In this document: positions 6,149 to 25,697 of the stretch, piece after piece
Layout of the letters: each line of letters opens with the position of its first letter
Numbering within the stretch: position 1 is the first letter of the stretch
Assembly: GCA_965198005.1 (NCBI GenBank)
Contig: CBDAOI010000002.1
Location: 96,001-160,000 of the forward strand
DNA: 64,000 nt
Direction of reading: 5' to 3'
Source: Spirochaetia bacterium
GTDB lineage: Bacteria > Spirochaetota > Spirochaetia > SZUA-6 > Bin103
The notes under the pieces: generated by a model
The model's database searches: none
What the model saw: the letters and a program-made list of their open reading frames with translations, nothing else
Told to the model about the DNA's origin: nothing
Position numbers and translations under genes: made by a program

Positions 6149-6222
6149 TGGGCCTGGCTAGAATTGAACTAGCGACCTCACGCTTATCAGGCGTGCGCTC
6201 TGACCAACTGAGCTACAGGCCC
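6149..6222 (-). tRNA. tRNA-Ile (GAT), CCA not encoded
   Basis: Reverse complement GGGCCTGTAGCTCAGTTGGTCAGAGCGCACGCCTGATAAGCGTGAGGTCGCTAGTTCAATTCTAGCCAGGCCCA folds as a cloverleaf with anticodon GAT. Confidence 0.96.
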
Positions 6223-13089: not shown

Positions 13090-14616
13090 TCATTCAAGCG
13101 GAAGCTCTTGCGGCGCGACAACGTAGCGTACCGGGCTCTTCTCCTTCACCAACGTGCGTTCATCAACGAGGCGCTTCAACCATGGGCCCAAAGTCGTCGC
13201 GGATATCTCCAGCTCGTCGGCGATTGTATTGCGGTCTCTTGGTTCCACGCAAATGCTCTGCACGTAAGAACCGACCTCTCGATAGAGAAGTTCGGCGTAG
13301 GAACTACCCCGATATTGAACTGACGGAGCCGACTCCAAAATCACATCCGACTTCGCTTCGTCGTCCTGCGGTGAGATAACGTAGGTCTCTCTACCAAGCT
13401 TCTCCACGGCTCCGCCAGCGGCAAGCCGCTTCAGCCAGGTATTGGCCATGGTCTTGGGGACTCCCAACTCGGCGGCAACATGCTCGGCCTTCTGAGGTTC
13501 GGCACAGATGCGCGTGACGTACGACTCGACGTCTCGAAGGAGAAGTCGCGCGTAGTCCTGCGGCTGGGGCAATGCATCGGCCGGCGCGGAGATGGGTTCC
13601 GGGCTCGTCGCGCCAATCTCCGGTCCCACGGAGCGTTCGACCTCGCCAGTCGCCGGTTCATGCACAGAGACGACGCGACCAAGAATCTCCTCGATCCCAT
13701 CCGCGTCTTTCGGTTCTGGCCACGGGCGTGCGCCACGATCTTGCAGAGCCTCAAGGCCCGCGGAAGGATCGCCGCTCGAACGCACGAAGACGGGCACGGG
13801 GTACTTTTTCAACTGCTCGACGGCCCCGGACCACGTGCCCCCTCGGTTGAAGTCCGCGTTCACCACCAGACCCGCTTCCGCCAGTGCATAGATCACCTTG
13901 TTGCGCTGCATCGCCTGCGCGACCGTGAATCTCAGGCTCGGGTCGAATGGAGAAACCAGTACGAGCCGCTCTTCCAGCATCAGGTTGCGATGCTCGCGGT
14001 TCATGACCGTCCTCTCCAAGTCTCCGGGCAGCACTCCTACGACGCGGCCACCGGCCTCCAAAGCACCGTTCATGGCGGCCCGATCAACGCCTCTGGCACC
14101 ACCCGAGACCACGGTCAACCCGGCGCCGGCGACCAGCGCTGCAGTTTCCCGCGTGTACTCGATGAGTGGATCAGTAACGTCGCGCGATCCGACAATCGCG
14201 AAGCTCCGGGTATGCATGATCTCTTGCAGTCCACACCCGTAAAGCACGCTCGGCGCATCGTTCTTCAAACGCTGCTTGAGCAACGGTGGGTAGGCTGCAT
14301 CGGCGCGGCTCACGACCCAGATCCCTCGCGTCTGCCAACGCTCCACCGCCTGGCTCAGCAGGAATCCTCGGTTCAGCAATGCTCTCAGGCGAGTCTCGTC
14401 GATCACCTCGCCGCATTGCGCGAGGAGCCGATCAGCCCCCGACTCCAGCAGGTTGGCCGGCTCGGACTGGAGCGATGCCAGACAAGGGGCCAGCTTCCGG
14501 TACTCGCCGGCGGTAAGGATTTGCGCTCGTGGCCCGCGGTTGCCGACGACCAGGGGAGCGGTGAGCAGCAGGATCGCCATGGTGTTGGCGGACAGGCCAT
14601 CGGCCCCGTTCATCAT
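13090..14616 (-). CDS. dprA: DprA/Smf-family protein with duplicated C-terminal wHTH
   Basis: YPPLL, AIVGSR, VVSGGARGVDRAA, AMQRNKVIYALA, GGTWSGA. Confidence 0.88.
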   Translation of the reverse strand: MMNGADGLSANTMAILLLTAPLVVGNRGPRAQILTAGEYRKLAPCLASLQSEPANLLESGADRLLAQCGEVIDETRLRALLNRGFLLSQAVERWQTRGIWVVSRADAAYPPLLKQRLKNDAPSVLYGCGLQEIMHTRSFAIVGSRDVTDPLIEYTRETAALVAGAGLTVVSGGARGVDRAAMNGALEAGGRVVGVLPGDLERTVMNREHRNLMLEERLVLVSPFDPSLRFTVAQAMQRNKVIYALAEAGLVVNADFNRGGTWSGAVEQLKKYPVPVFVRSSGDPSAGLEALQDRGARPWPEPKDADGIEEILGRVVSVHEPATGEVERSVGPEIGATSPEPISAPADALPQPQDYARLLLRDVESYVTRICAEPQKAEHVAAELGVPKTMANTWLKRLAAGGAVEKLGRETYVISPQDDEAKSDVILESAPSVQYRGSSYAELLYREVGSYVQSICVEPRDRNTIADELEISATTLGPWLKRLVDERTLVKEKSPVRYVVAPQELPLE

Positions 14617-14683
14617 CTCGTGTCTCGTCCGAAAGTGCCGGCAATCGGCGATGCCTGTATCTCGACTATCATCGTCTTCCGTG

Positions 14684-16759
14684 TCATGAAGTGGCGCTGC
14701 TGCCTCCTGCATCAGCCAGGGCCAGGGGCCACACTTCCCCACTGCCGCGGCGCCGAAGCTCCCAGGCGACCACGGTGAAGGTCCAGCGCGAGTCTACCAT
14801 GTCATCTACCAACAGCACGGGCCCGGGAAGCATCTGACGCCGGTCGACCACCAGCGATCCGATAACATTGCGCGCCTGCTTGTCGCTGTTCTCCATCGTC
14901 TTCTGCTCCGGTCGCTCCTCCTTCCGCTCGAGCACCGCTTGAAACGGAAGTTCAAGCGCATGGGCCAGCCGTCTGGCAAAGTCAGGCACCAGATGCGGAC
15001 GCCGGTGCGAGGGCACGGCGGCAACCCAGGTGGGATACGGGGCAGGCTGCCACTTCCGAACCAGGGCCGCGCAGGCGTCCACGAGCTCCTCGGCGAAATG
15101 ATCGTCTCGGTACTTTCCGTCCGCTACCAGGCGGCCCCAGCCGGCATCTCCCCAGACGCACAATGCCATTCCCGGCTGCGCACGATGTTCACGCTCGATC
15201 CACTTGCCGGTTGGCCATTGCTTGCGCGGAACGATCGGCAGGTTCTCGTTGCGGAGGAAGGTGATGGCGTCCCTGACGCTGGCCGGATGCACGGTTGTCG
15301 GCAGGTGGGGCACCTCGGGCGGTCGAAAATCGCCCGGGTCGCCGTCCAGCGACCGGATGAGAAACTCCATGTGGTCGGAGGAGAGATCCACGTACTGCTG
15401 CATCTGTTGCTGCTCTGCCTGCCTGAGTTCGGTGAGCCGTTCCGTCCGCTGCCAGAACGCCTCGCTCAGTCTGGCCGCCGTGAGCTGCCACTTCGTGCCG
15501 AACGTCGCTATTGGCGCGGGTGACTCGAGCGCGAGGAGCTGGATCGTCTTCCGTATGCGCCCGTAGCCGAGGTTGACTTCGGCTGCGATCTCGCGAATCG
15601 ACAGACCCTCCGGGGCGGCCTCCAACGCGTCGAGGACGGCCGCGACCTGATCGCGATTGGGGAATGCGCTCGCTATGAAGTAGTTCGTGATGTCGGTTTC
15701 TTCGGTACCGCTCAGCAGCACGCCGTAGGCCGCATCGAGCGCGCGACCCGCGCGCCCCACCTGTTGATAGTAGGCCACGACCGAGCCTGGCGTCTGGTAG
15801 TGGATGACGAATGCGAGGTCCGGTTTGTCGAAGCCCATCCCCAATGCCGTCGTCGCGACCAGCGCTTTCACCTTGTTGTCAAGGAGAGCCTGCTCCAGTT
15901 CGGGCCGGCGCTCACCTGACTTGCCGGTGTATGCCTCGGCCTCGATGCCGCGCGTCCTGAGCCATCGGGCCACCTGCTCGGCGTCGCGGATCGTGAGGGT
16001 ATAGACGATTCCGCTTCCCGGCAGGTCCAGCAGCAGGTCGGACAGCCACGCGAGCCTTTCCGCCTGACTGGGCAGGCGCATTGTCTGCAGCGCCAGCGAA
16101 GGACGCGCCAAGTCGCCGCGGGAAACCGTCAAGTTCGGGCCAAGGATCTTCTGCAGGTCCTCCATGACCCGATTGTTGGCGGTTGCGGTGGTAGCCAGCA
16201 GACGAAGATTCGGAGGCAAAACGCGGAGGGTGCGTTCGATCCGTCGGTAGTCAGGACGGAAGTCATGCCCCCAGTCGGAGATGCAGTGCGCTTCGTCGAC
16301 GACGAGGAGCGAGACCCGACTGCCGATTTGAGACAACACCTGGTTATTGAAGCGCTCGTTGGCAAAGCGTTCCGGCGCGATGAGGACGATGTCCACCTCG
16401 CCACGGCGTATCGCCGCCTCCACATCCCGCCAGCGCTCCGCATTGTCGGAATTGATGGTCTCGGCCCGCACGCCCATCCGCTCTGCTGCCGAGATCTGGT
16501 TCCGCATCAGTGCGAGCAGTGGGCTGACGAGCAACGCCGGTCCCATGCCGGCCTCGCGCAACAGCTTGGTCGCGATGAAGTAGACGAAGCTCTTCCCCCA
16601 ACCCGTCTTCTGCACCACCAGAAGCCGCCGGCTGCCCTGGAAGACGTGGCGGATCGCTTCTTCCTGGCCTGCCCGAAACCGCGCTCGCGGATCGCCCACC
16701 CCCGCTCGCAGCAGCGCCAGGGCCCGTGCCGAAGAAAAACTCCCTGGTGTCTGTTTCAT
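14684..16759 (-). CDS. RecQ-family helicase with C-terminal ComF-like phosphoribosyltransferase domain
   Basis: QKTGWGKS, DEAHCISDWGHDFRPDY, ALGMGFDKPD, QQVGRAGR; C-terminal VLLVDDMVDSRWT. Confidence 0.9.
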   Translation of the reverse strand: MKQTPGSFSSARALALLRAGVGDPRARFRAGQEEAIRHVFQGSRRLLVVQKTGWGKSFVYFIATKLLREAGMGPALLVSPLLALMRNQISAAERMGVRAETINSDNAERWRDVEAAIRRGEVDIVLIAPERFANERFNNQVLSQIGSRVSLLVVDEAHCISDWGHDFRPDYRRIERTLRVLPPNLRLLATTATANNRVMEDLQKILGPNLTVSRGDLARPSLALQTMRLPSQAERLAWLSDLLLDLPGSGIVYTLTIRDAEQVARWLRTRGIEAEAYTGKSGERRPELEQALLDNKVKALVATTALGMGFDKPDLAFVIHYQTPGSVVAYYQQVGRAGRALDAAYGVLLSGTEETDITNYFIASAFPNRDQVAAVLDALEAAPEGLSIREIAAEVNLGYGRIRKTIQLLALESPAPIATFGTKWQLTAARLSEAFWQRTERLTELRQAEQQQMQQYVDLSSDHMEFLIRSLDGDPGDFRPPEVPHLPTTVHPASVRDAITFLRNENLPIVPRKQWPTGKWIEREHRAQPGMALCVWGDAGWGRLVADGKYRDDHFAEELVDACAALVRKWQPAPYPTWVAAVPSHRRPHLVPDFARRLAHALELPFQAVLERKEERPEQKTMENSDKQARNVIGSLVVDRRQMLPGPVLLVDDMVDSRWTFTVVAWELRRRGSGEVWPLALADAGGSSATS

Positions 16760-16966
16760 GATCCGCGCGCCACTGTTCGCTCGACGTGTCGAGTGCCCTC
16801 TCCCAAAACAAGGTGTAGATGATGCCCAGACACGGGTCAATCCCGTTGATCGCTCCACGAGCTTGTCTCCAGCGCCATCGTTACGGACTACCTTCGCACT
16901 CGCTCGCAGGGCGCGAGCCGGGAACAACAAGCCGGCACCACGGCCATGAACGAAGTCCCTCCCGGT

Positions 16967-19900
16967 TCACGATGACGCGGAGATGCTCAGTATCTCCAGC
17001 GCCTCCTTGCGGTCCAGGTGCGGGTGGGCGAACTGATTTCGATAGCTGCGCAAGCAGCCGTAGCAACTCGAATCGCATCCGCACGCGCCGCTCACACGGT
17101 CCCGAGCGTGCCGGAGCACCGCCGCGAACACCTCTTCGCGCTCCAGTTGAGCAACCAAGCCAGCGCCACCGGGGACGTTGTCGTAGAGCACTATCGACGC
17201 GGTTGTCGATGCCACCGCCGCGGTCGCGTCGACGCCTGCGATCGTGACATTCAGGTCGGTGTCCGGCACCCCCAACCGTTCGGCTGCTCCCAACAGGAGT
17301 GCGTAACCCACGGAATAGGCCATCCACTCGCCGTTCAGGTGGGGCACCTGCAGCCGCACCACGTCCGTAACCAGCTCGTGCCCAAGCGAGAAGTGCCGCA
17401 GCGTACCGGAGCACGGGGTATCCCACGGAGTTCGGTGTTCATGCTCCTGTTCGGTGAGGTGGCTCCCGCACGTGAGACAGATATAGAATCCCTGCCGGTT
17501 ATGCCCCTCGCAGAGAACGACGAGCGTACCGGGCAGCGCCTTCGTCACCTCGATGCCGAACAGTTTCCTCGTCTCCAGACGGACGTCACCGCCGAATCCC
17601 TTGAAGAACGGGCGAGTCGTATACAGCCGGCGCACCCGGCCGCGCGGCTCTTTCGGCTGCTGAAACAGCGCCGTAACGAACCCGAACTGCGGGATGAGAT
17701 ATTGCCTCATCCCCGGTGGCCGCGGTCCGCTGTCCTCGATCTGGGTGAAGTTCCGCGCCTCATTGTAATCGTAGTATGGCGTCTGTAGCGCCTTGCCGGG
17801 TACGATCTTGACTCCGACCGATTCCCACTCCCGCTTGTCCGCTATCACCTTGCCGCCGGGCGCGTACTCGGCGATCGCCTGTGACAGATCCCTCTGCAAC
17901 GCCACTCCGGTGGACTCCCGCGATTGGCCGCTCCGGGTGTCGAGCTCCACCACGTCTACCGGAAATCCATACTTCGGGATGGCCGCCTTGCGCGACAGGA
18001 AGCTCAGGGTCTGCTCTTCCGCAATGGTCCTCATACGACGCTCGATGTGGCCGACTTTAGTCGTCCAGCCTTTCGGCTGCTCCCGTATCAGGACCTCCTT
18101 CGCCTCCTGCATGGCACGATAGTCCGCGCACACCTCCAGTTCGACTTCGGCAAGGCGACTTTCCGGTCCCGCGACGTGATCGACCCACCCGCCGCTGGTC
18201 AATCCGGTGGCTGGGTGCATCGGCTCAGGCACAATGCGCTTCAATGCCGACTGCAGCGCGGCGTTGCCATGGCAGAAACGCTTCAGTTCGGAGACCGCAT
18301 CCGGGGCCTGCCAGTCGCCGACGAACTGCTGTACGTTGATGAAGCGGCCGCCCTTCCCCAGGTCCCTGAAAAACGCCGACAAAGCGGTGGCCGCCATGTG
18401 CCGTACGACGATTTTCGTATTCGTCACCTGCAGACGCGGCGGCTGCAATGGACTGTTGATTATGCGTTCGCACGGTTTCTCGTAGTGATAGAGATCGTGT
18501 GGATTGCGGCGGCAGTAAGTAACGGCGAAGCCTGGAGTCTCGCTGCGACCAGCGCGTCCAACGCGCTGCGTGTAGTTGAATGGCTCCGGCGGTACGTTGC
18601 GCACGAACACCGCCTCCAGATCGCCGATATCGACTCCCACCTCGAACGTAGTTGACGAACTGAGCAGGTGGATGTCTCCGTTTTTGAACCGCTCCTGACG
18701 CTGCCGCGCTTCATCGCTTGCGATCTGCGCCGTGTGTTCTTCGGCATGCAGCGTCGGGGGCAACGACGCGCTCTCGTAGAGGATGCGGTAGTGGTTGTTG
18801 CTTAGCCGCCGTTGGTCGGCTACACGCAACCTGCCGGGACAACGGTTTCTCGGACAAACGGCGCGAATACTGTGCAGGCTGATGCTTGCGCACGTGTCGC
18901 ACTCCCAAATCTCGTCGGATCGAGTAAGTGCGATGCGCAGCCAGCGCGAGTTGAGACGAAACGTGCCATTGGCGCTTCCCCGGGACAAGAGCTGGTCGGC
19001 GGGGCGCGAGTTGCCGTCGCGTGTTCGTAAGACGCTCCACGCCTGCCTCATGAGCCGGATGGACACCGACCGCTTGTCTTCATCGGACAACCCGCTGTCA
19101 GACAGAAGCCGATGCAGGAAATGCGCTACGACAGCCGACGCCGCGGAGCCCCACTGCCTCACGTTGCGACGTCTCCCCGGTGCCCCGATACCGTACGACG
19201 CCTGCGGCCAGGGCGAGACGTCGTTCCAGGCCGGCGCGCCGGCCTCTGCAGGCAGCGCCAACGCGCCGCGCAGACGAAGCTCGTCGAGGAGATATGCAAG
19301 AAGTCCGCGAGTGTCTTGCTCGGACAGACTCCAGGGCGGCATTCGTGCTACCTCCGGCAGCGCTACGTCATCGGGAATCTCGACGCTCCACTTGAGCAGT
19401 CCGACCCCGCTCAACGACAGCCGGCGCTCGTCGGTCAACGCTTCGCTGAGAATCGACTCCAACACCCTTCGCCGTCTACCTTCGGCGGTATCAGAAGCGC
19501 TGAACAGCCCCGCATGATCCCATTGGCTGAGCAATCGGGATCTGAGGTCGTCGATGGACAGCCCCTCGGGAGCGATCGCGCCTTGTTGCAGAGCGCGCAG
19601 CATGAGATTGCGATCGCGCAGCTTGCCGTAGGAGTCCTCGGCGTACCAGGCGAAGAATGCCGCTTCCTGACGGCTGTCCGCAAACGCCAACAGCTTGCGC
19701 CCAGTTTCCGGCAGCAACTCGTGCAGAGCGGTGGCGATGACCGCGTTCGGGCCGTCCGAGCCGTGCACGATCTCCTGCACCGGATCTCCCACGCCGCCAC
19801 GCCGATAGCCACAGGTCGCGCACTCCTTCAATTGATCGGGTTGCTCCTTGTGGGACGCACACTTCGCAACGTGGAGCGCAGCCGGAGCGCCGCAGGTACA

Positions 19901-21253
19901 CCCCGGCGTGGCACTCGCGGCGGCGGACAGGCGGCCGCAACGGCGACACAGTACGTGCGATGCACCAGCACTCGACTCCAACGGCCGATAGTACTCGACT
20001 CCGAAGCCCGGCTGGCTCGGGTCCCGCACCGCCTCCTCCAGCCTGCCGTGACGCTCACGGCCGACGTAATAGTGCTGACCGCATTCGCGACACAGCGCGA
20101 TCTCCAGCGGCACGGATCCGGTCCCGTTGGCCAACTCCCCCTTGCGGTTGAGAACCACTGCGTCCCGGCCCTCGCGGTGAACGAGGAACGCACCTTCCAA
20201 CGCGCGCAGGAACGTATGATACCGCCGCGGCGACCGCTGATCGCCCGGCCGCGACGAGCCGAAGATGACGCCGGACGGCGAAAACGATTCTCCGAACAGC
20301 TCCGCAGCGAATTTCGCCACGGCGGTCTTGTCGTCTTCTCCCTCGCCGGAGGACAGCGTTGCGCTGGTGGCGATGCACCGGAATGGCTCGCTACGCCCGC
20401 CGGTGGTCAGGCGCTGCTTCAGGCGCCGAATCAATATGCCCATCTCCATGCCCTTGGCGCCCCGGTACTGATGCGCCTCGTCCAAGACGATGAACTGCCA
20501 GCGCGTGCCGCGCCCGCCATCGAACAGCGGGCTGTCGTCGGGCCGAATCAGCAGGTACTCGAGCATCGAGTAGTTGGTCAGCAGGATATGCGGCGGCGTG
20601 ATCCGCATCTCTTCCCGGAAGATCAACTCCCCGGTGAGTCGTTCTTGCTCTCGATCCGCCGCGTTGCGCCACGTGTCGCTTCTGCTCTTGGGTGTCTGGC
20701 CGGTGTATTGTCCAAAGGTCGGACGAAAATCCGACCCGGCGATGCTCAGCGATTTCGCTATCTCACCGAGGCGTTCCCGTTGATCGTTGGCGAGCGCATT
20801 CATCGGATAGAGAATCATCGCACGCACGCCCGGTTGACCCAGCTCGCCCGCGAGATGCTGTCGGTACAGCTCGAACAGAATCGGGTAGAGAAAGCTCTCC
20901 GTCTTGCCGCTTGCGGTACCGGTCGCGACCACGACGTTCCGCCGCTCGCCGTAAGCAGCCCGAACCGCGCGCTCCTGGTGTACGTACAGCGGCCCGTGCC
21001 TCAGTCCCGGAAGCAGCCGGTCCGCCATGCCTGGAAAACACTGTCGCGCCAACTCGTGTGCCTCCGCACCGTGCTCGAATCCGCGATCGGGTTCGGGATA
21101 CGGCCCCTTCAGCAGACTCCCCTCCTTCCCAAGAGCGGACTCGAAGGAATCCCGCAGCGCGCGATCTTTGAAGAAGAATGATGTCTTCAGGTAATTCTCG
21201 TAGCGACTTCGAATGGTGTCAGTCCACCGTTCGACGTGTTCTGCTTTGGGCAC
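16967..21253 (-). CDS. SF2 DEAH-box helicase with C-terminal DUF1998/MZB domain (DruE/DrmB/DpdJ-like)
   Basis: TGTASGKTE, YPMNALANDQ, DEAH, SATL, FEVGVDIG, QRVGRAGR, LYDNVPGGAG, CGCDSSCYGCL; GTG start with AAGGGGG RBS. Confidence 0.92.
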   Translation of the reverse strand: MPKAEHVERWTDTIRSRYENYLKTSFFFKDRALRDSFESALGKEGSLLKGPYPEPDRGFEHGAEAHELARQCFPGMADRLLPGLRHGPLYVHQERAVRAAYGERRNVVVATGTASGKTESFLYPILFELYRQHLAGELGQPGVRAMILYPMNALANDQRERLGEIAKSLSIAGSDFRPTFGQYTGQTPKSRSDTWRNAADREQERLTGELIFREEMRITPPHILLTNYSMLEYLLIRPDDSPLFDGGRGTRWQFIVLDEAHQYRGAKGMEMGILIRRLKQRLTTGGRSEPFRCIATSATLSSGEGEDDKTAVAKFAAELFGESFSPSGVIFGSSRPGDQRSPRRYHTFLRALEGAFLVHREGRDAVVLNRKGELANGTGSVPLEIALCRECGQHYYVGRERHGRLEEAVRDPSQPGFGVEYYRPLESSAGASHVLCRRCGRLSAAASATPGCTCGAPAALHVAKCASHKEQPDQLKECATCGYRRGGVGDPVQEIVHGSDGPNAVIATALHELLPETGRKLLAFADSRQEAAFFAWYAEDSYGKLRDRNLMLRALQQGAIAPEGLSIDDLRSRLLSQWDHAGLFSASDTAEGRRRRVLESILSEALTDERRLSLSGVGLLKWSVEIPDDVALPEVARMPPWSLSEQDTRGLLAYLLDELRLRGALALPAEAGAPAWNDVSPWPQASYGIGAPGRRRNVRQWGSAASAVVAHFLHRLLSDSGLSDEDKRSVSIRLMRQAWSVLRTRDGNSRPADQLLSRGSANGTFRLNSRWLRIALTRSDEIWECDTCASISLHSIRAVCPRNRCPGRLRVADQRRLSNNHYRILYESASLPPTLHAEEHTAQIASDEARQRQERFKNGDIHLLSSSTTFEVGVDIGDLEAVFVRNVPPEPFNYTQRVGRAGRSETPGFAVTYCRRNPHDLYHYEKPCERIINSPLQPPRLQVTNTKIVVRHMAATALSAFFRDLGKGGRFINVQQFVGDWQAPDAVSELKRFCHGNAALQSALKRIVPEPMHPATGLTSGGWVDHVAGPESRLAEVELEVCADYRAMQEAKEVLIREQPKGWTTKVGHIERRMRTIAEEQTLSFLSRKAAIPKYGFPVDVVELDTRSGQSRESTGVALQRDLSQAIAEYAPGGKVIADKREWESVGVKIVPGKALQTPYYDYNEARNFTQIEDSGPRPPGMRQYLIPQFGFVTALFQQPKEPRGRVRRLYTTRPFFKGFGGDVRLETRKLFGIEVTKALPGTLVVLCEGHNRQGFYICLTCGSHLTEQEHEHRTPWDTPCSGTLRHFSLGHELVTDVVRLQVPHLNGEWMAYSVGYALLLGAAERLGVPDTDLNVTIAGVDATAAVASTTASIVLYDNVPGGAGLVAQLEREEVFAAVLRHARDRVSGACGCDSSCYGCLRSYRNQFAHPHLDRKEALEILSISASS

Positions 21254-23441
21254 GTCGTTGTATCCCCCTTAGTGCATCGATATTGAAACCGTACGCGGTA
21301 TGGCGCCGCCAGTCGATAGGAATATCCACCTGCTTCGCAGCGGCAGCCGTCAGCCCTGCGGCGTGGATCTCGCGCAAACTGAATCCCCTTCCGGGCCGCC
21401 TGCCGCGCCCATGCGTGTGCGTGACGTAGGCACGCAATCGACCGATCTTCAGCGGAGAAAACACGGTTACTTCTGCGTGTTGTGTCACCTTCTCGCCAGT
21501 CATCACCACATCCGGATGCGCATGGAACGAGACAATCTCTGGAACAGCATCAGCGATGACACGGACCAGTGGCACAATGGATGAGCCGCATCGAGCATGC
21601 AATAGAGCATCCTCGTGCAACCAGCTATCGATCTGCGAATCGTCCGCGAAGTCGATGAGAGGAAGCTGTACCGTGCGAATCAAGTCCTCTGTCTGTATTG
21701 AGCGATAGCTTCTGGTCAAGTCATGATCGAATCCCACGTCTACGGCATTGATCTCCCGTGGTAGACGGATCCGAACCACAGAGTCGGAGTTGGCGTGGTC
21801 ACGAAACTCACTGCGCGTCATCGCCAGCCGTGTCGCGCACCAGGGTGCTGATTCCTCTCCTTCGTGCCCAAGACACCACCAAATCCTCGGTAACCTGATC
21901 ACCACCTCGACACTGCCCGATGGAGTCTCTAGCGAGCAGGCAACCTCGTCGGCAGCCGGATACGGAGCCACCATCACGGCCGCTTCCTCTTCCACCCATC
22001 GTTGGTGGGAACCTGGTCTCAACGAGGGCCGAATGGCTGCGCCCTTCACCCCCACGAACTGCACCTTGGTCGGAGTATGGCCTTCTATCGCTGGCGCCAG
22101 CAGCGTTTCCCCGGTGTAGGGTCTACCATTTACGAGGATCTCGCGGAGGCCCTCGACGTAGCGGAATTCGCCATTGTCGCACAGCTTCGTATCGCTGTCG
22201 TACACGCGCACAAAAAAGCGTCCCTGACGTTGATCCAGCACGTCCGCCAACGGGCGTTCCGCGGGCAGGAAGCTTTCCCCGCGCCAGCCGCCATCCTTCT
22301 CTTCGCCGACGCGCGCCCAAGTGACTCCGCGCCCCGGTCTCAGTTCCGGAGGCCTGCCAATGAACAGTCCGCCTTCGGTCGAGTCGTCGTAGAGTCGCTC
22401 GCCGATCAGCGAGAAGCCCGCGCGGGTCAGCTCCAAGTCGCACTCCTCGAAGCCAACGCCGTCCGCTGACGGGTCGCCGTTGCGAAAGAAGTAGTGCGCC
22501 TGGAACGCAGGATCGGCGCTCGCCTCCGGTGCGACCGGCGCGCGCCCCCTGCGGTTCCATCCTGTCGGTGCTATCACGATGAAGTGACCGCGACTGACGG
22601 CGTCGATTCTCCGACCGACACCGCTCCACCTGTCGGCCAACTTGAAGATCATCGGCGCTCGCGCGGTGCATAACGGAAGCTCGGTTGCACTGCCGTCCGC
22701 ATGATCGACGGAGAGAACCCCCGCAAAGGATGAAAGGCGGTACTCGGCCCGTTCCGCGCGTAGGCGGGTGTCGTCGAGCCGAACGCCGGTTACATTGCAT
22801 TCGTCGGGCGCCGACAAGACTACCCCCCATTGCCATGACCCGGGCGCCTTTCGGCATATCAACTCCGGTAGGGCAGGAGGCGGGGCTGGGCGGTTCGCTG
22901 CCCTCGGGACGGCGACCGCAGCGCGCACGCCCCGCCGTGCGCCGTGCCTGCGCGGTGGCCGACGCGGTGTTGTCGCACTACCGCGAGAAGGTTCCGGACC
23001 GTGCTCCGCAGGCTGTTGGGCGATGCGTTGGCCAATTTCTAGCTTGCGGAAGTCCGGCCCGACCAATCGCCTGTCGAGAGTGAAAACGGTCGTCACACCG
23101 AGCTGAGACATCAGCGCGCGGCTGGTTCGGGGGATCAGAGCACCCAGATCGCGCTTGCCCCGGGTAAGGGCTCGGGCATGAAGCCCGGAATCGACCGTCA
23201 GAACCGTCACGCGCGGTTTCAGCTCGGCGAGGAACGCCCGCGCTTTGTCGAATCCGAGCCGTGCCTGCACGAGCGCCAGCAACTCCGCGCACACGTAGCT
23301 GGAAGTGATCAGCGGAGCCCCGGAGCGCAACAATTCGTCCCAGGCCGAACCAACCTGAGCATGCGCCTCATGGGTCGGGTCAAGCAGCGCGTAAAACGCT
23401 GTCGTGTCGATGAATATGGCGTTTCCGTCGGAGCGCTCCAT
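21219..23441 (-). CDS. Fusion protein: N-terminal PIN (VapC-like), uncharacterised middle, C-terminal ribosomal protein L13e-like domain
   Basis: N-terminus IFIDTTAFYALL...TSSYVCAEL...VFTLDR; C-terminus RPGRGFSLREIHAAGL...IPIDWRRHTAYGFNIDAL; stop overlaps the helicase start. Confidence 0.75.
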   Translation of the reverse strand: MERSDGNAIFIDTTAFYALLDPTHEAHAQVGSAWDELLRSGAPLITSSYVCAELLALVQARLGFDKARAFLAELKPRVTVLTVDSGLHARALTRGKRDLGALIPRTSRALMSQLGVTTVFTLDRRLVGPDFRKLEIGQRIAQQPAEHGPEPSRGSATTPRRPPRRHGARRGVRAAVAVPRAANRPAPPPALPELICRKAPGSWQWGVVLSAPDECNVTGVRLDDTRLRAERAEYRLSSFAGVLSVDHADGSATELPLCTARAPMIFKLADRWSGVGRRIDAVSRGHFIVIAPTGWNRRGRAPVAPEASADPAFQAHYFFRNGDPSADGVGFEECDLELTRAGFSLIGERLYDDSTEGGLFIGRPPELRPGRGVTWARVGEEKDGGWRGESFLPAERPLADVLDQRQGRFFVRVYDSDTKLCDNGEFRYVEGLREILVNGRPYTGETLLAPAIEGHTPTKVQFVGVKGAAIRPSLRPGSHQRWVEEEAAVMVAPYPAADEVACSLETPSGSVEVVIRLPRIWWCLGHEGEESAPWCATRLAMTRSEFRDHANSDSVVRIRLPREINAVDVGFDHDLTRSYRSIQTEDLIRTVQLPLIDFADDSQIDSWLHEDALLHARCGSSIVPLVRVIADAVPEIVSFHAHPDVVMTGEKVTQHAEVTVFSPLKIGRLRAYVTHTHGRGRRPGRGFSLREIHAAGLTAAAAKQVDIPIDWRRHTAYGFNIDALRGIQRRAQSRTRRTVD

Positions 23442-23612
23442 AGGAATCCGAAACTGCCGTGATAATACACGACTGGGCACACGTCTTACCATAAGCGGTG
23501 TGCCGGTTGCGGCTCGCATCCAGCGCGGTACTCGGGGCTGCGCGGCCCCGAAGGCCGGTATCTGCGCCCAGCCGGTGGCGGGCACGCAGCAGACGTTCAG
23601 AAACGGCCGGCT

Positions 23613-25697
23613 TCACCGCTGAGGCAGGCTAGGTCGCACCGCGTCCAGAACCACTTCAAGACACTGGTCCAGGTCGCGTGATAGTTCGCGGACGCTGAAG
23701 CGCGTCACCTGCCACCCCTCGGCCTCGATGGCTCGGTCCCGGTTGGAACTCGCTCCCGGTTTCCGAGGAAAGGCAGCCCCATCGCACTCGACGTCCAGTC
23801 GAACCTCCCCGTCTTCGACAGCGACGTCGAGTCGGTGCCCCGCCACCACTGCGCCCGTTCTGGCGGGAACGCCACGGCGCAGAAGCGCCTCGAACAATTC
23901 CATCGCGACCGGACTGTCGAAACCGCTCGCTTCGATCCTGGTCACGTAGCCCGCCAAGCGCCTCAGTACGGTCTCATGTGCGATCCACGCTTCGATGTCT
24001 CCAATGATGACCAGGCGACGGCGCGCACGCGTCAGAGCGACGTTGATCAGATTCCGGTCGGACACTTGCCGGACCACAGCCTCGGCCTCGGCGCGATTGA
24101 TCCGGCTCCGCCCGCGCGGACCGCGGGCGGCCTGTCCCGCAACTCGTACCCACTCGATGGCACGCAAGCCGGCGGGTGGCTTCCGGTCGCTGCACAGCTC
24201 CATGTTCCCGTCGTAGAACTCGGTATTGGCGAAGCCGATGATGGCCGGATGCGACCGGAAGTGCAGGTCGAGGAACAGGGGCGGCGCCACGATCCGCGCC
24301 ACCGCCAAGTCGAAACAGCTATGGTAGCGGTAGCTGAACGCTTCGGCGCGCTCCTCCGCCAAGCCCCATCTCCGCGCAATGAGCCGCTCACGCGCGTGGC
24401 TGAGCGTAGTGACGTGAATCAGTTGTCGCTGATCGCCAATGATCAGCGCACGCTCCGCACGCACGAGCAACGGTAGCGCGGACGCCACGTCGCACTGTGA
24501 CGCCTCGTCTATCACCACCAGATCGAACAGCCCGGGTTGCAGCGGCAGATTGGTGCGAGCGGAAAGATTCGTCACCTGCGACCTCCTCCCTGAGAGCGGC
24601 GCCCCCGGCTCGCACGACGATCCCGTGCGGGGAGGTCTCGCGCAGCCGATCGACCACGACATCCACCGCCTTGTTGTTCTTCGACGCCAGCAGCACGGTC
24701 TCGCCGCGGCATACGGCGGCGGCTACGACATTCACCAGCACCTGCGACTTTCCGGTCCCGGGCGGGCCGGTTACCACCGTGAACTGGTTCGTCATCGCAG
24801 CGTGCACCGCGTGATCCTGCGCCAGGGAGGAGGGTACGAGCGTCGGATGCGCCTCCGGGAGCGGCGGTTCCGCAACCGAACCGGTACCCAACAACACGGC
24901 GGCCGGGCCACGCCGCAGCAGCTCCGGCCGATTCGCCAGTTCGTGCAGGTCGACGACAAGGTTCCGCACGAATGGCAGGCGGCCTGACGTTGCCATCAAA
25001 CCTCCGGGCTCTCATCCACCGCTTTCACGAATGCCTCACGCTCATCCCGAGCGAAACCGAGAAGATCAAGCGCGAAGGGATTGAGCTCCACGAACTCACC
25101 GGGGCGTTGGCAACGCCATGTTCCGTGTTGGAACTGTAGTCGCACCTCGGTGAGCAGCAACGGGGATGCGGCGATGTCACCCGGTCCCGAGGACGTGCAC
25201 CCCACGATGAGCGGCCAGCCGGCTATCTGCGTCTCGCCCACAGCCCGTGCGCGCCGCTCGCACCAGTCGCGGCTGTCCGGATCATCGGATACCGAGATCG
25301 AGGCATGGAACGGGCTCTTGCGGCCGGCGAGCTCGATATGATCGCGACTGCCGGGAACCAAGCGCAGCGAGCCGGCGGCTTCCGCTTCTACGCAATCGCG
25401 AAAGAATCCGACCAGGGCGACCAACTCGTCCTCAGGTGGTTTGTTCCGGTCGACCATCGTCTGCCGCGCGTGGATTTCAGGGGCGCCGTTGAACATGCGC
25501 ACCTTGCCCTGGACGCGAACCTGATCGCCGGATTGCGGAGCCAGGCCGGCCTCCCACCACACGACCGTCAGCTCATCGTCGCCTTGCGCGCGTAGCGTCG
25601 CCTTCACCGCCGGGCCGTTCCCGGTCGCGAAAGTCCGTCGCCTGCCTACCTTGCCCACCACGTCGACCGATTGTCCCTCTGTCAGGGGGTGCTGCAT
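23613..25697 (-). pseudogene. Deleted copy of the OB-fold/SF1 helicase/DUF559-like gene
   Basis: Matches 35444..38686 but lacks three internal segments (about 231, 782 and 145 bp by manual alignment); split over three ORFs. Confidence 0.9.

Follow-up and report, generated by a model that had tools for sequence, protein, structure and literature searches.

An archaeal-type eL13 module at the C-terminus of a bacterial protein family that neighbours DruE-type helicases

Introduction

Why should a large bacterial protein, encoded next to a helicase of the defence type, end in a domain that resembles a ribosomal protein of archaea and eukaryotes? This question is raised by a stretch of 64,000 nucleotides (the window) from a Spirochaetia bacterium (assembly GCA_965198005.1, contig CBDAOI010000002.1, positions 96,001 to 160,000), which carries two adjoining minus-strand genes, here called A and B. 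An initial annotation, made from the sequence alone, had proposed that the product of gene A combines an N-terminal PIN domain with a C-terminal eL13-like domain, and that the latter might direct the PIN domain or the neighbouring DUF1998 helicase to ribosomal RNA (rRNA) or another structured RNA. Our results indicate that gene A belongs to a large, undescribed partner family of the Druantia/YprA kind that carries a domesticated archaeal-type ribosomal protein. A domain of archaeo-eukaryotic ribosomes has become the standard C-terminal end of a large bacterial family whose genes are obligate neighbours of a DruE-type helicase.

Results and Discussion

The tail of gene A is homologous to ribosomal protein eL13

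The minus-strand open frame runs from 23585 to a stop at 21219-21221, and translation of 21219-23585 gives 788 codons. The likely start of gene A is the ATG at 23441 (Met49 of the frame), because the 740-amino-acid (aa) database twin P0003 begins at that internal methionine; P0003 is listed as 100% identical, yet at least 2 residues differ from the window translation. The C-terminus reads ...RRPGRGFSLREIHAAGLTAAAAKQVDIPIDWRRHTAYGFNIDALRG, followed by 14 residues and the stop, so the peptide quoted in the initial annotation agrees with the translation. The layout of gene A, with immunoglobulin abbreviated as Ig, is as follows.

21219..23441, minus strand: gene A, 740 aa; PIN domain, Pro/Arg-rich linker, beta-sandwich core, Ig-like remnant and eL13 module
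23064..23417, minus strand: PIN domain, frame residues 57-174; 24.6 bits on Pfam PF01850 (gathering score 23.6)
21498..22994, minus strand: conserved family core, 499 aa, all-beta; alignment A4, AlphaFold2 model, Foldseek, VIA-align
21456..21524, minus strand: remnant of an Ig-like domain preceding the module; 44-residue in-frame gap against P0004
about 21261..21440, minus strand: eL13-like module of about 60 aa, strongly basic; Pfam-aligned part 21300-21422
21219..21253, minus strand: overlap of the gene A end and the gene B start, 35 nucleotides (nt)

Several sequence comparisons bear on the tail. On the whole gene A protein, Pfam Ribosomal_L13e (PF01294) scored 30 bits (gathering score 24.9; E 5.9e-7), with frame residues 722-762 aligned to model positions 55-95 of 180; the score was 34.2 bits (E 3e-8) on the last 113 aa alone and 32.3 bits in the genome scan. 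The NCBIfam model NF008914 (archaeal '50S ribosomal protein L13e') matched the tail over positions 24-79 of 83 with 50.7 bits (E 9.9e-14), although its equivalog cut-off of 96 bits was missed both by the tail and by a free-standing bacterial copy (60.8 bits). When the last 83 aa were compared with PDB sequences by phmmer, 71 distinct sequences were found at E<=10, and the best 60 of the 71 were all eL13 (top E 9.4e-7). Profile A3, built on 26 tails (the window's and those of 25 related loci), matched the 157-residue eL13 chain 9e6q_AH with 58 bits (E 5e-15) and about 57 eukaryotic eL13 chains at E 1e-10 to 1e-7. In 26 of 26 aligned tails the residues G-F-S, E, D, RR and N do not vary; they align with the same residues of 9e6q_AH, and the eL13 core signature G-R/K-G-F-S..E...A-G......D.RR....N is present in the module.

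The predicted fold was similar. An AlphaFold2 model of the 84-aa tail (predicted local distance difference test, pLDDT, 83.8; predicted template modelling score, pTM, 0.70) gave 80 Foldseek matches at E<=0.001, and the best 50 of the 80 were all ribosome or pre-ribosome entries. The best match had E 1.6e-5 and a template modelling (TM) score of 0.64 over 75 columns at 39% identity, and among the matches listed TM scores were 0.51-0.65 across 63-77 columns; many of the matched chains carry the eL13 name in the sequence searches, and the others are assigned by ribosome entry only. PF01294 had no match in 14 control genomes and a single match, gene A, in the window's genome. Because the Pfam, NF008914, phmmer, A3, Foldseek and control-genome results agree, the homology of the gene A tail to eL13 is secure, and the Pfam and Foldseek comparisons that the initial annotation had proposed as checks both bear it out.

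The module is also strongly basic, with a median isoelectric point of 11.3 and a median net charge of +7.5 (n=26). CATH 1.10.10 is a topology common to winged-helix DNA-binding domains. A review table, silent on that point, places eL13 in this class (PMC11354259).

Type and origin of the module

Profile A5, which combines fused and free-standing bacterial copies, retrieved 142 small proteins. The named ones are archaeal L13e of 63-117 aa (E 1e-14 to 1e-17) from Bathyarchaeia, Desulfurococcales, Acidianus, Staphylothermus, Korarchaeota and Odinarchaeota, lineages that agree with the eL13 distribution in Table 1 of PMC9932298. Since the named matches are archaeal L13e of this size, the module represents an entire archaeal-size eL13 of about 60 residues, not a fragment of the 200-aa eukaryotic protein. 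In a tree of 130 modules, based on only 66 columns, a branch with support 81/71 had 43 of 45 fused modules on the same side, together with 8 short records that resemble family fragments; this topology would be compatible with a single capture of the module. The same tree groups four proteins of 127-142 aa (P0254, P0274, P0230 and P0207), in which an N-terminal eL13 module is followed by a helix-hairpin-helix (HhH) domain, with the L13e-named Bathyarchaeia protein P0224.

Free-standing eL13-like proteins of 66-72 aa were found in three bacterial genomes of the window's phylum.

L040:1465-1665, plus strand: free-standing eL13-like gene, PF01294 42.8 bits
L041:1477-1686, minus strand: free-standing eL13-like gene, PF01294 39.5 bits
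L042:1438-1656, plus strand: free-standing eL13-like gene, PF01294 34.6 bits

No defence context was seen around these three genes. Ribosomal protein eL15, which matched in 4 of 4 archaeal controls, was absent from the window's genome and from the three genomes with free-standing copies, and all four are therefore taken to be bacterial. Across the phylum, PF01294 was found in 4 of 401 genomes, with the fused form in the window's genome only, and a word-based search with a free-standing copy returned only 4 proteins. The statement that bacteria lack eL13 therefore has to be qualified: some bacteria do encode eL13-like proteins, a point of relevance to the reuse of ribosomal-protein folds. The fused module is like eL13 (PF01294; NF008914) in signature, size, predicted fold and basic charge. 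Unlike eL13, it is fused to the C-terminus of a bacterial protein of about 750 aa and scores below the equivalog cut-off, and a ribosomal role for it is unlikely.

Gene A is paired with a DruE-type helicase

Gene B adjoins gene A on the same strand, as the initial annotation had stated for a DUF1998 helicase.

16967..21253, minus strand: gene B, 1428-aa superfamily 2 helicase of the YprA/DruE type
20351..20980, minus strand: DEAD domain (RecA1) of B, residues 92-301; Pfam 65.8 bits
18542..18751, minus strand: Helicase_C domain (RecA2) of B, residues 835-904; Pfam 40.7 bits
17051..17308, minus strand: MZB (DUF1998) zinc-binding domain of B, residues 1316-1401; Pfam 47.5 bits

The best PADLOC matches of B were DruE3 (E 2.3e-153) and DruE1 (E 2.6e-151). 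The protein ends at the MZB domain and lacks a C-terminal nuclease domain. Because the end of A overlaps the start of B by 35 nt, the arrangement suggests one operon with coupled translation.

The pairing extends well beyond the window. We collected 36 related loci, all from metagenome-assembled genomes (MAGs), which represent Latescibacterota, Acidobacteriota, Dehalococcoidia/SAR202, Binatia, Poribacteria, Rhodothermales, Gamma- and Alphaproteobacteria, Spirochaetia, Gemmatimonadota and Limisphaerales. B-like sequence, with the N-terminus of B matched from residues 1-12, lies directly downstream of A on the same strand in 33 of the 36, which answers in the affirmative the adjacency question that the initial annotation had raised. 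Not all of these 33 copies are intact: two are fragments (L025, L033), one is interrupted (L032), one is truncated (L015) and one is cut by the contig end (L009). Three loci lack B: in two of them the contig stops at A, and in L003 the 4.9 kb downstream of A contain no B. Clustering of open reading frames (ORFs) over the loci showed that A and B alone are common between them, with no conserved third gene. In the interrupted Salinispira copy, about 1.2 kb (L032:11028-12286) separates the helicase gene between query residues 462 and 459-727.

Family A is large and has exchangeable ends

A word-based search found 42 relatives of gene A, and HMMER with the family profile against 1.84 billion representatives found 1242 proteins at E<=1e-30, a count that is inflated because Ig-repeat proteins match the profile. 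The best 150 matches all exceeded 600 bits, and family A therefore comprises more than 150 clusters at 50% identity, found in MAGs of more than ten bacterial phyla. When scored with a hidden Markov model (HMM) of the module, 145 of 187 collected family proteins contain it (131 of the 163 with at least 600 aa); Pfam on single sequences detects it in 25 of 42 and in 22 of 37 members. The module stands at the extreme C-terminus, the median number of residues after it being 0.

In some members another domain takes this position. The uS5 protein, with both of its domains, replaces eL13 in L036 (36.5 and 41.8 bits) and P0121 (30.9 and 68.4 bits).

L036:7233-9779, residues 715-847: uS5 tail, diverged
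P0121, residues 692-812: uS5 tail, diverged, of bacterial type

The genome of L036 keeps a canonical uS5 gene elsewhere (103.8 bits versus 41.9 for the fused copy), and the fused copy is of bacterial type (TIGR01021 84.2 bits versus 46.6 and 39 for archaeal models). A near-canonical uS17 (104.9 bits) ends P0029 at residues 678-744. A metagenome scan for P0029 yielded 80 loci, all ordinary S17 genes (at most 72% identical, residues about 670-751) and none with the A core or a helicase. As this leaves a single protein record, the uS17 fusion may be a chimeric assembly. P0187 ends in a weak HhH match (17.3 bits), and zinc-ribbon-like tails occur in other members. Searches with the tails of P0144, P0079, P0090, P0122, P0094, P0134, P0102 and P0162 yielded no domain identity. 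A HARE-HTH domain had been considered for the tails of L008, L020, P0037 and P0042 and was rejected, as these gave no Pfam or PDB match and PF05066 was absent from the two genomes at E<=1.

The N-terminus varies as well. The PIN domain put forward by the initial annotation is supported by its Pfam score and by four acidic residues, D12, E53, D84 and D123 (P0003 numbering), retained in 21 of 21 PIN-bearing relatives and assigned here to putative PIN catalytic positions. Among close relatives, 19 of 42 have the domain; in alignment A2 it occurs in 1 of 37 rows, that of the window twin P0003, with no instance in the 36 distant loci, and it is confined to the window's clade. The eL13 module occurs throughout the family and is not tied to the PIN domain; the suggestion that it serves this domain is not supported by these counts. 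In distant members a short amphipathic helix comes first, then a low-complexity linker, and a domain search of the long N-termini of nine members found none. In a Thermoanaerobaculia locus (L034:5388-9458), sigma-70 regions 2-4 run in frame into the A core over 904 codons without a stop; the eL13 tail of this member is degenerate (34.8 bits on the module HMM).

Between the two ends lies the 499-aa core (alignment A4), modelled as an all-beta chain with pLDDT 86.7 and pTM 0.77. Foldseek gave 191 matches at E<=0.001 to multi-Ig proteins such as S-layer Sap, titin and contactins, with low global TM scores, as expected for a beads-on-a-string chain of domains, and VIA-align gave Z 5-6 for Ig/fibronectin type III (FnIII)-like domains at core residues 190-282, 282-372 and 385-480. 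The core is thus modelled as tandem Ig/FnIII-like beta-sandwiches, a common fold that says little about function. Comparison of five blocks by hhalign detected no internal repeats. The core profile matched in the PDB only eL14 (9bh5_CM, E 0.007, 18 bits, positions 393-464) and eL33 (E 2.1), which are too weak to be used and probably due to chance, and a search of the Protein atlas gave no usable match.

Relation to known helicase-based systems

Druantia type III consists of the pair DruH-DruE. Published work also distinguishes a compact III-B form and, in addition, a 'Type III-like' branch; in both, nuclease domains are missing from the helicases, for the latter in most cases (PMC12458937; bioRxiv 10.64898/2026.05.13.724758). 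In one preprint DruH is described as binding single-stranded DNA and lacking a nuclease (bioRxiv 10.64898/2026.05.12.722862); another reports three Ig-like domains and presents it as a likely protein-recognising sensor (bioRxiv 10.64898/2026.05.12.724681). A-B resembles Druantia III in its two genes, in the partner upstream of a DruE/YprA helicase with MZB, and in size class. The likeness to the III-B/'Type III-like' branch extends to a helicase without PLD domains, a partner modelled as Ig-rich and a defence-island setting. Unlike DruH, A shows no detectable DruH sequence relation; its tails are eL13, uS5 or uS17, and one clade adds a PIN domain, features that are not reported for DruH in the portions of the Druantia III literature covered. 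DruH (9tud) does not occur among the Foldseek matches listed for the A core, in a fold library that ends at 2026-04-08 and may not hold 9tud.

Other YprA-linked or related conflict systems, TALON/TOTE and CoCoNuT, recruit TBP, cold-shock or SmpB-like domains, as two articles report (PMC12458937; PMC10542128). Like A-B, they bring nucleic-acid-binding domains of transcription or translation into helicase-based defence cassettes. Unlike A-B, they use other domains and partner genes, and eL13, uS5 and uS17 are unmentioned in the texts searched. The PIN domain of A retains the four acidic residues, as in VapC-type toxins; it differs from these in being mounted on a large scaffold, with no adjacent antitoxin, and in the window's clade only. 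The literature searched held no account of family A, nor of L13, S17 or other ribosomal proteins in such a setting; the supplementary neighbourhood tables of PMC12458937, which lay outside the search, may hold one.

The Druantia/YprA group thus gains a new partner family, and with it a natural series of swaps: eL13, uS5, uS17 or other tails at one end, and PIN, sigma-70 or a plain helix at the other. With such swaps the part played by the partner protein, still disputed for DruH, can be tested directly.

A candidate two-gene defence system and the alternatives

We consider A-B a candidate Druantia-III-like two-gene defence system in which A would be the variable partner and the eL13 module a basic nucleic-acid-binding anchor, and we give this reading a probability of about one half. 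It builds on the homology and fold of the module, its terminal position and basic charge, the domain layout, the A-B pairing and the island context, all of them observed. In the proposed mechanism, A would act as a sensor or scaffold partner of the DNA helicase B, formed of tandem Ig/FnIII-like sandwiches with exchangeable end modules. B would engage and unwind the invader nucleic acid, and the eL13 module would keep A attached to this substrate, or to a nucleic acid that B makes accessible. The nuclease missing from the helicase might be provided, in the window's clade, by the PIN domain.

Several points weigh against this reading. By sequence, A is not DruH: searched with A, PADLOC yields nothing at E<=1, against 10 DruH models (72-2457 bits) for E. 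coli DruH as the positive control (identified via PDB chain 9tud_A), and hhalign of the core against E. coli DruH gave a probability of 0.2%. Family A is known solely from uncultivated genomes and was found in no plasmid, phage or viral-contig collection searched. As most members lack the PIN domain, a nuclease is predicted in neither protein for most of them. The partners in the tail swap are other ribosomal proteins (uS5, uS17), which docking on the ribosome or rRNA would fit at least as well. The window's gene A may itself be impaired: 44 residues of its Ig-like domain (at about 21483) are gone in frame in comparison with the 71%-identical P0004, with the eL13 module intact. For all members, we infer nucleic-acid binding, the substrate, A-B contact and anti-phage activity. 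As a separate comparison, no hhalign relation was found between A and a 1069-aa protein upstream of a DruE-like helicase of Clostridium butyricum.

Docking would mean that the eL13-like, uS5 and uS17 modules place A, with its PIN domain or helicase, on the ribosome or rRNA and couple invader sensing to a translation shut-down in the style of abortive infection. Three different ribosomal-protein domains do occur at one C-terminal position, the uS5 of the L036 tail is of bacterial type and a diverged second copy, and the invariant residues of the module are those common with eL13. VapC-type PIN toxins, moreover, cut tRNA or 23S rRNA. Set against this, no site for eL13 is known in the bacterial ribosome; the large subunit contains eL13 and the small one uS5 and uS17, so that no single docking site is implied, and non-ribosomal tails (the weak HhH in P0187, zinc-ribbon-like tails and others) share the position. 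The helicase family, moreover, acts on DNA in characterised Druantia III systems, as described in three preprints (bioRxiv 10.64898/2026.05.12.722862, 10.64898/2026.05.13.724758, 10.64898/2026.05.12.724681). Docking, the main alternative, is in our judgement rather unlikely. A broader form of it, equally tentative, takes A as a modular sentinel whose captured eL13, uS5, uS17 and sigma-70 ends would sit on ribosomes, rRNA or RNA polymerase, or mimic their parts as bait; a DruE-type DNA-sensing helicase would then be physically tied to the host translation and transcription apparatus, an immune-surveillance mode not described for helicase-based systems. The bait component by itself, in which end modules imitating host expression machinery (ribosomal proteins, a sigma factor) attract phage take-over proteins, agrees with the uS5 and uS17 tails, with the sigma-70 region 2-4 module in L034 and with the proposal that DruH is a protein-recognising sensor (bioRxiv 10.64898/2026.05.12.724681). 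Nevertheless, eL13 is the most frequent module and does not belong to the host machinery, PF01294 matches nothing else in the window's genome, we know of no phage partner, and the viral structure library BFVD gave 0 matches to the module model at E<=0.001, so we consider an integrated decoy highly improbable.

The module might instead work inside the system, by binding B or by folding back on A for auto-inhibition or assembly. The strict gene pair with overlapping frames would suit such a contact, and in one study Druantia III defence reportedly requires an interaction of DruH with DruE (PMC13316683); another source saw no direct DruH-DruE contact (bioRxiv 10.64898/2026.05.12.722862). This explanation predicts neither the very high positive charge nor the swaps for unrelated RNA-binding folds, and it is very doubtful. 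It is likewise quite improbable that A and B have no defence role and represent a helicase for DNA repair or housekeeping together with its accessory protein, like MrfA/MrfB. B does have the MrfA/YprA core (DEAD, Helicase_C, MZB), but its best matches are DruE models (E 1e-153), it lies in a defence island, the occurrence is patchy (PF01294 in 4 of 401 phylum genomes, the fused form only in the window's), and copies are degraded or interrupted at several loci. Finally, the tail could owe its likeness to chance or convergence on a repeat-like motif, GFSxxELxxAG(L/F)T, as in the decapeptide repeats of DotG/IcmE. These repeats, similar to the GFSxxELxxAG part, were the only foreign match of profile A3, which sums to 51 bits on them with no single stretch passing, and Pfam 'Decapeptide' gave 12.3 bits (E 0.16). 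However, the eL13 alignments span 49-57 residues with D.RR...N..L included, NF008914 is covered over nearly its whole length (positions 24-79 of 83) and the predicted fold matches eL13 over 63-77 columns, which leaves chance a negligible share.

Defence-island setting in the window

The defence island described in the initial annotation is borne out by PsyrTA, which lies directly downstream of helicase B at 13090-16930 on the minus strand. Helicase genes of the Mokosh type are also found near A-B.

14684-16930, minus strand: PsyrT, 884.6 bits
13090-14742, minus strand: PsyrA, 422.8 bits
35444-38974, minus strand: MkoC/MkoA-like gene, 1176 aa

In addition, two overlapping ORFs of 349 and 203 aa at 23613-24999 on the minus strand match different parts of Mokosh/PDC-S37-type helicase-nuclease models, and from these matches they look like one broken gene. 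The G+C content starts at about 0.72 and drops to 0.60-0.66 beyond about 12 kb (composition at 12-50 kb), and the sole tRNA gene of the window, a tRNA-Ile, is located at 6149-6222 on the minus strand. Both the drop in G+C and the position of the tRNA gene fit an acquired island.

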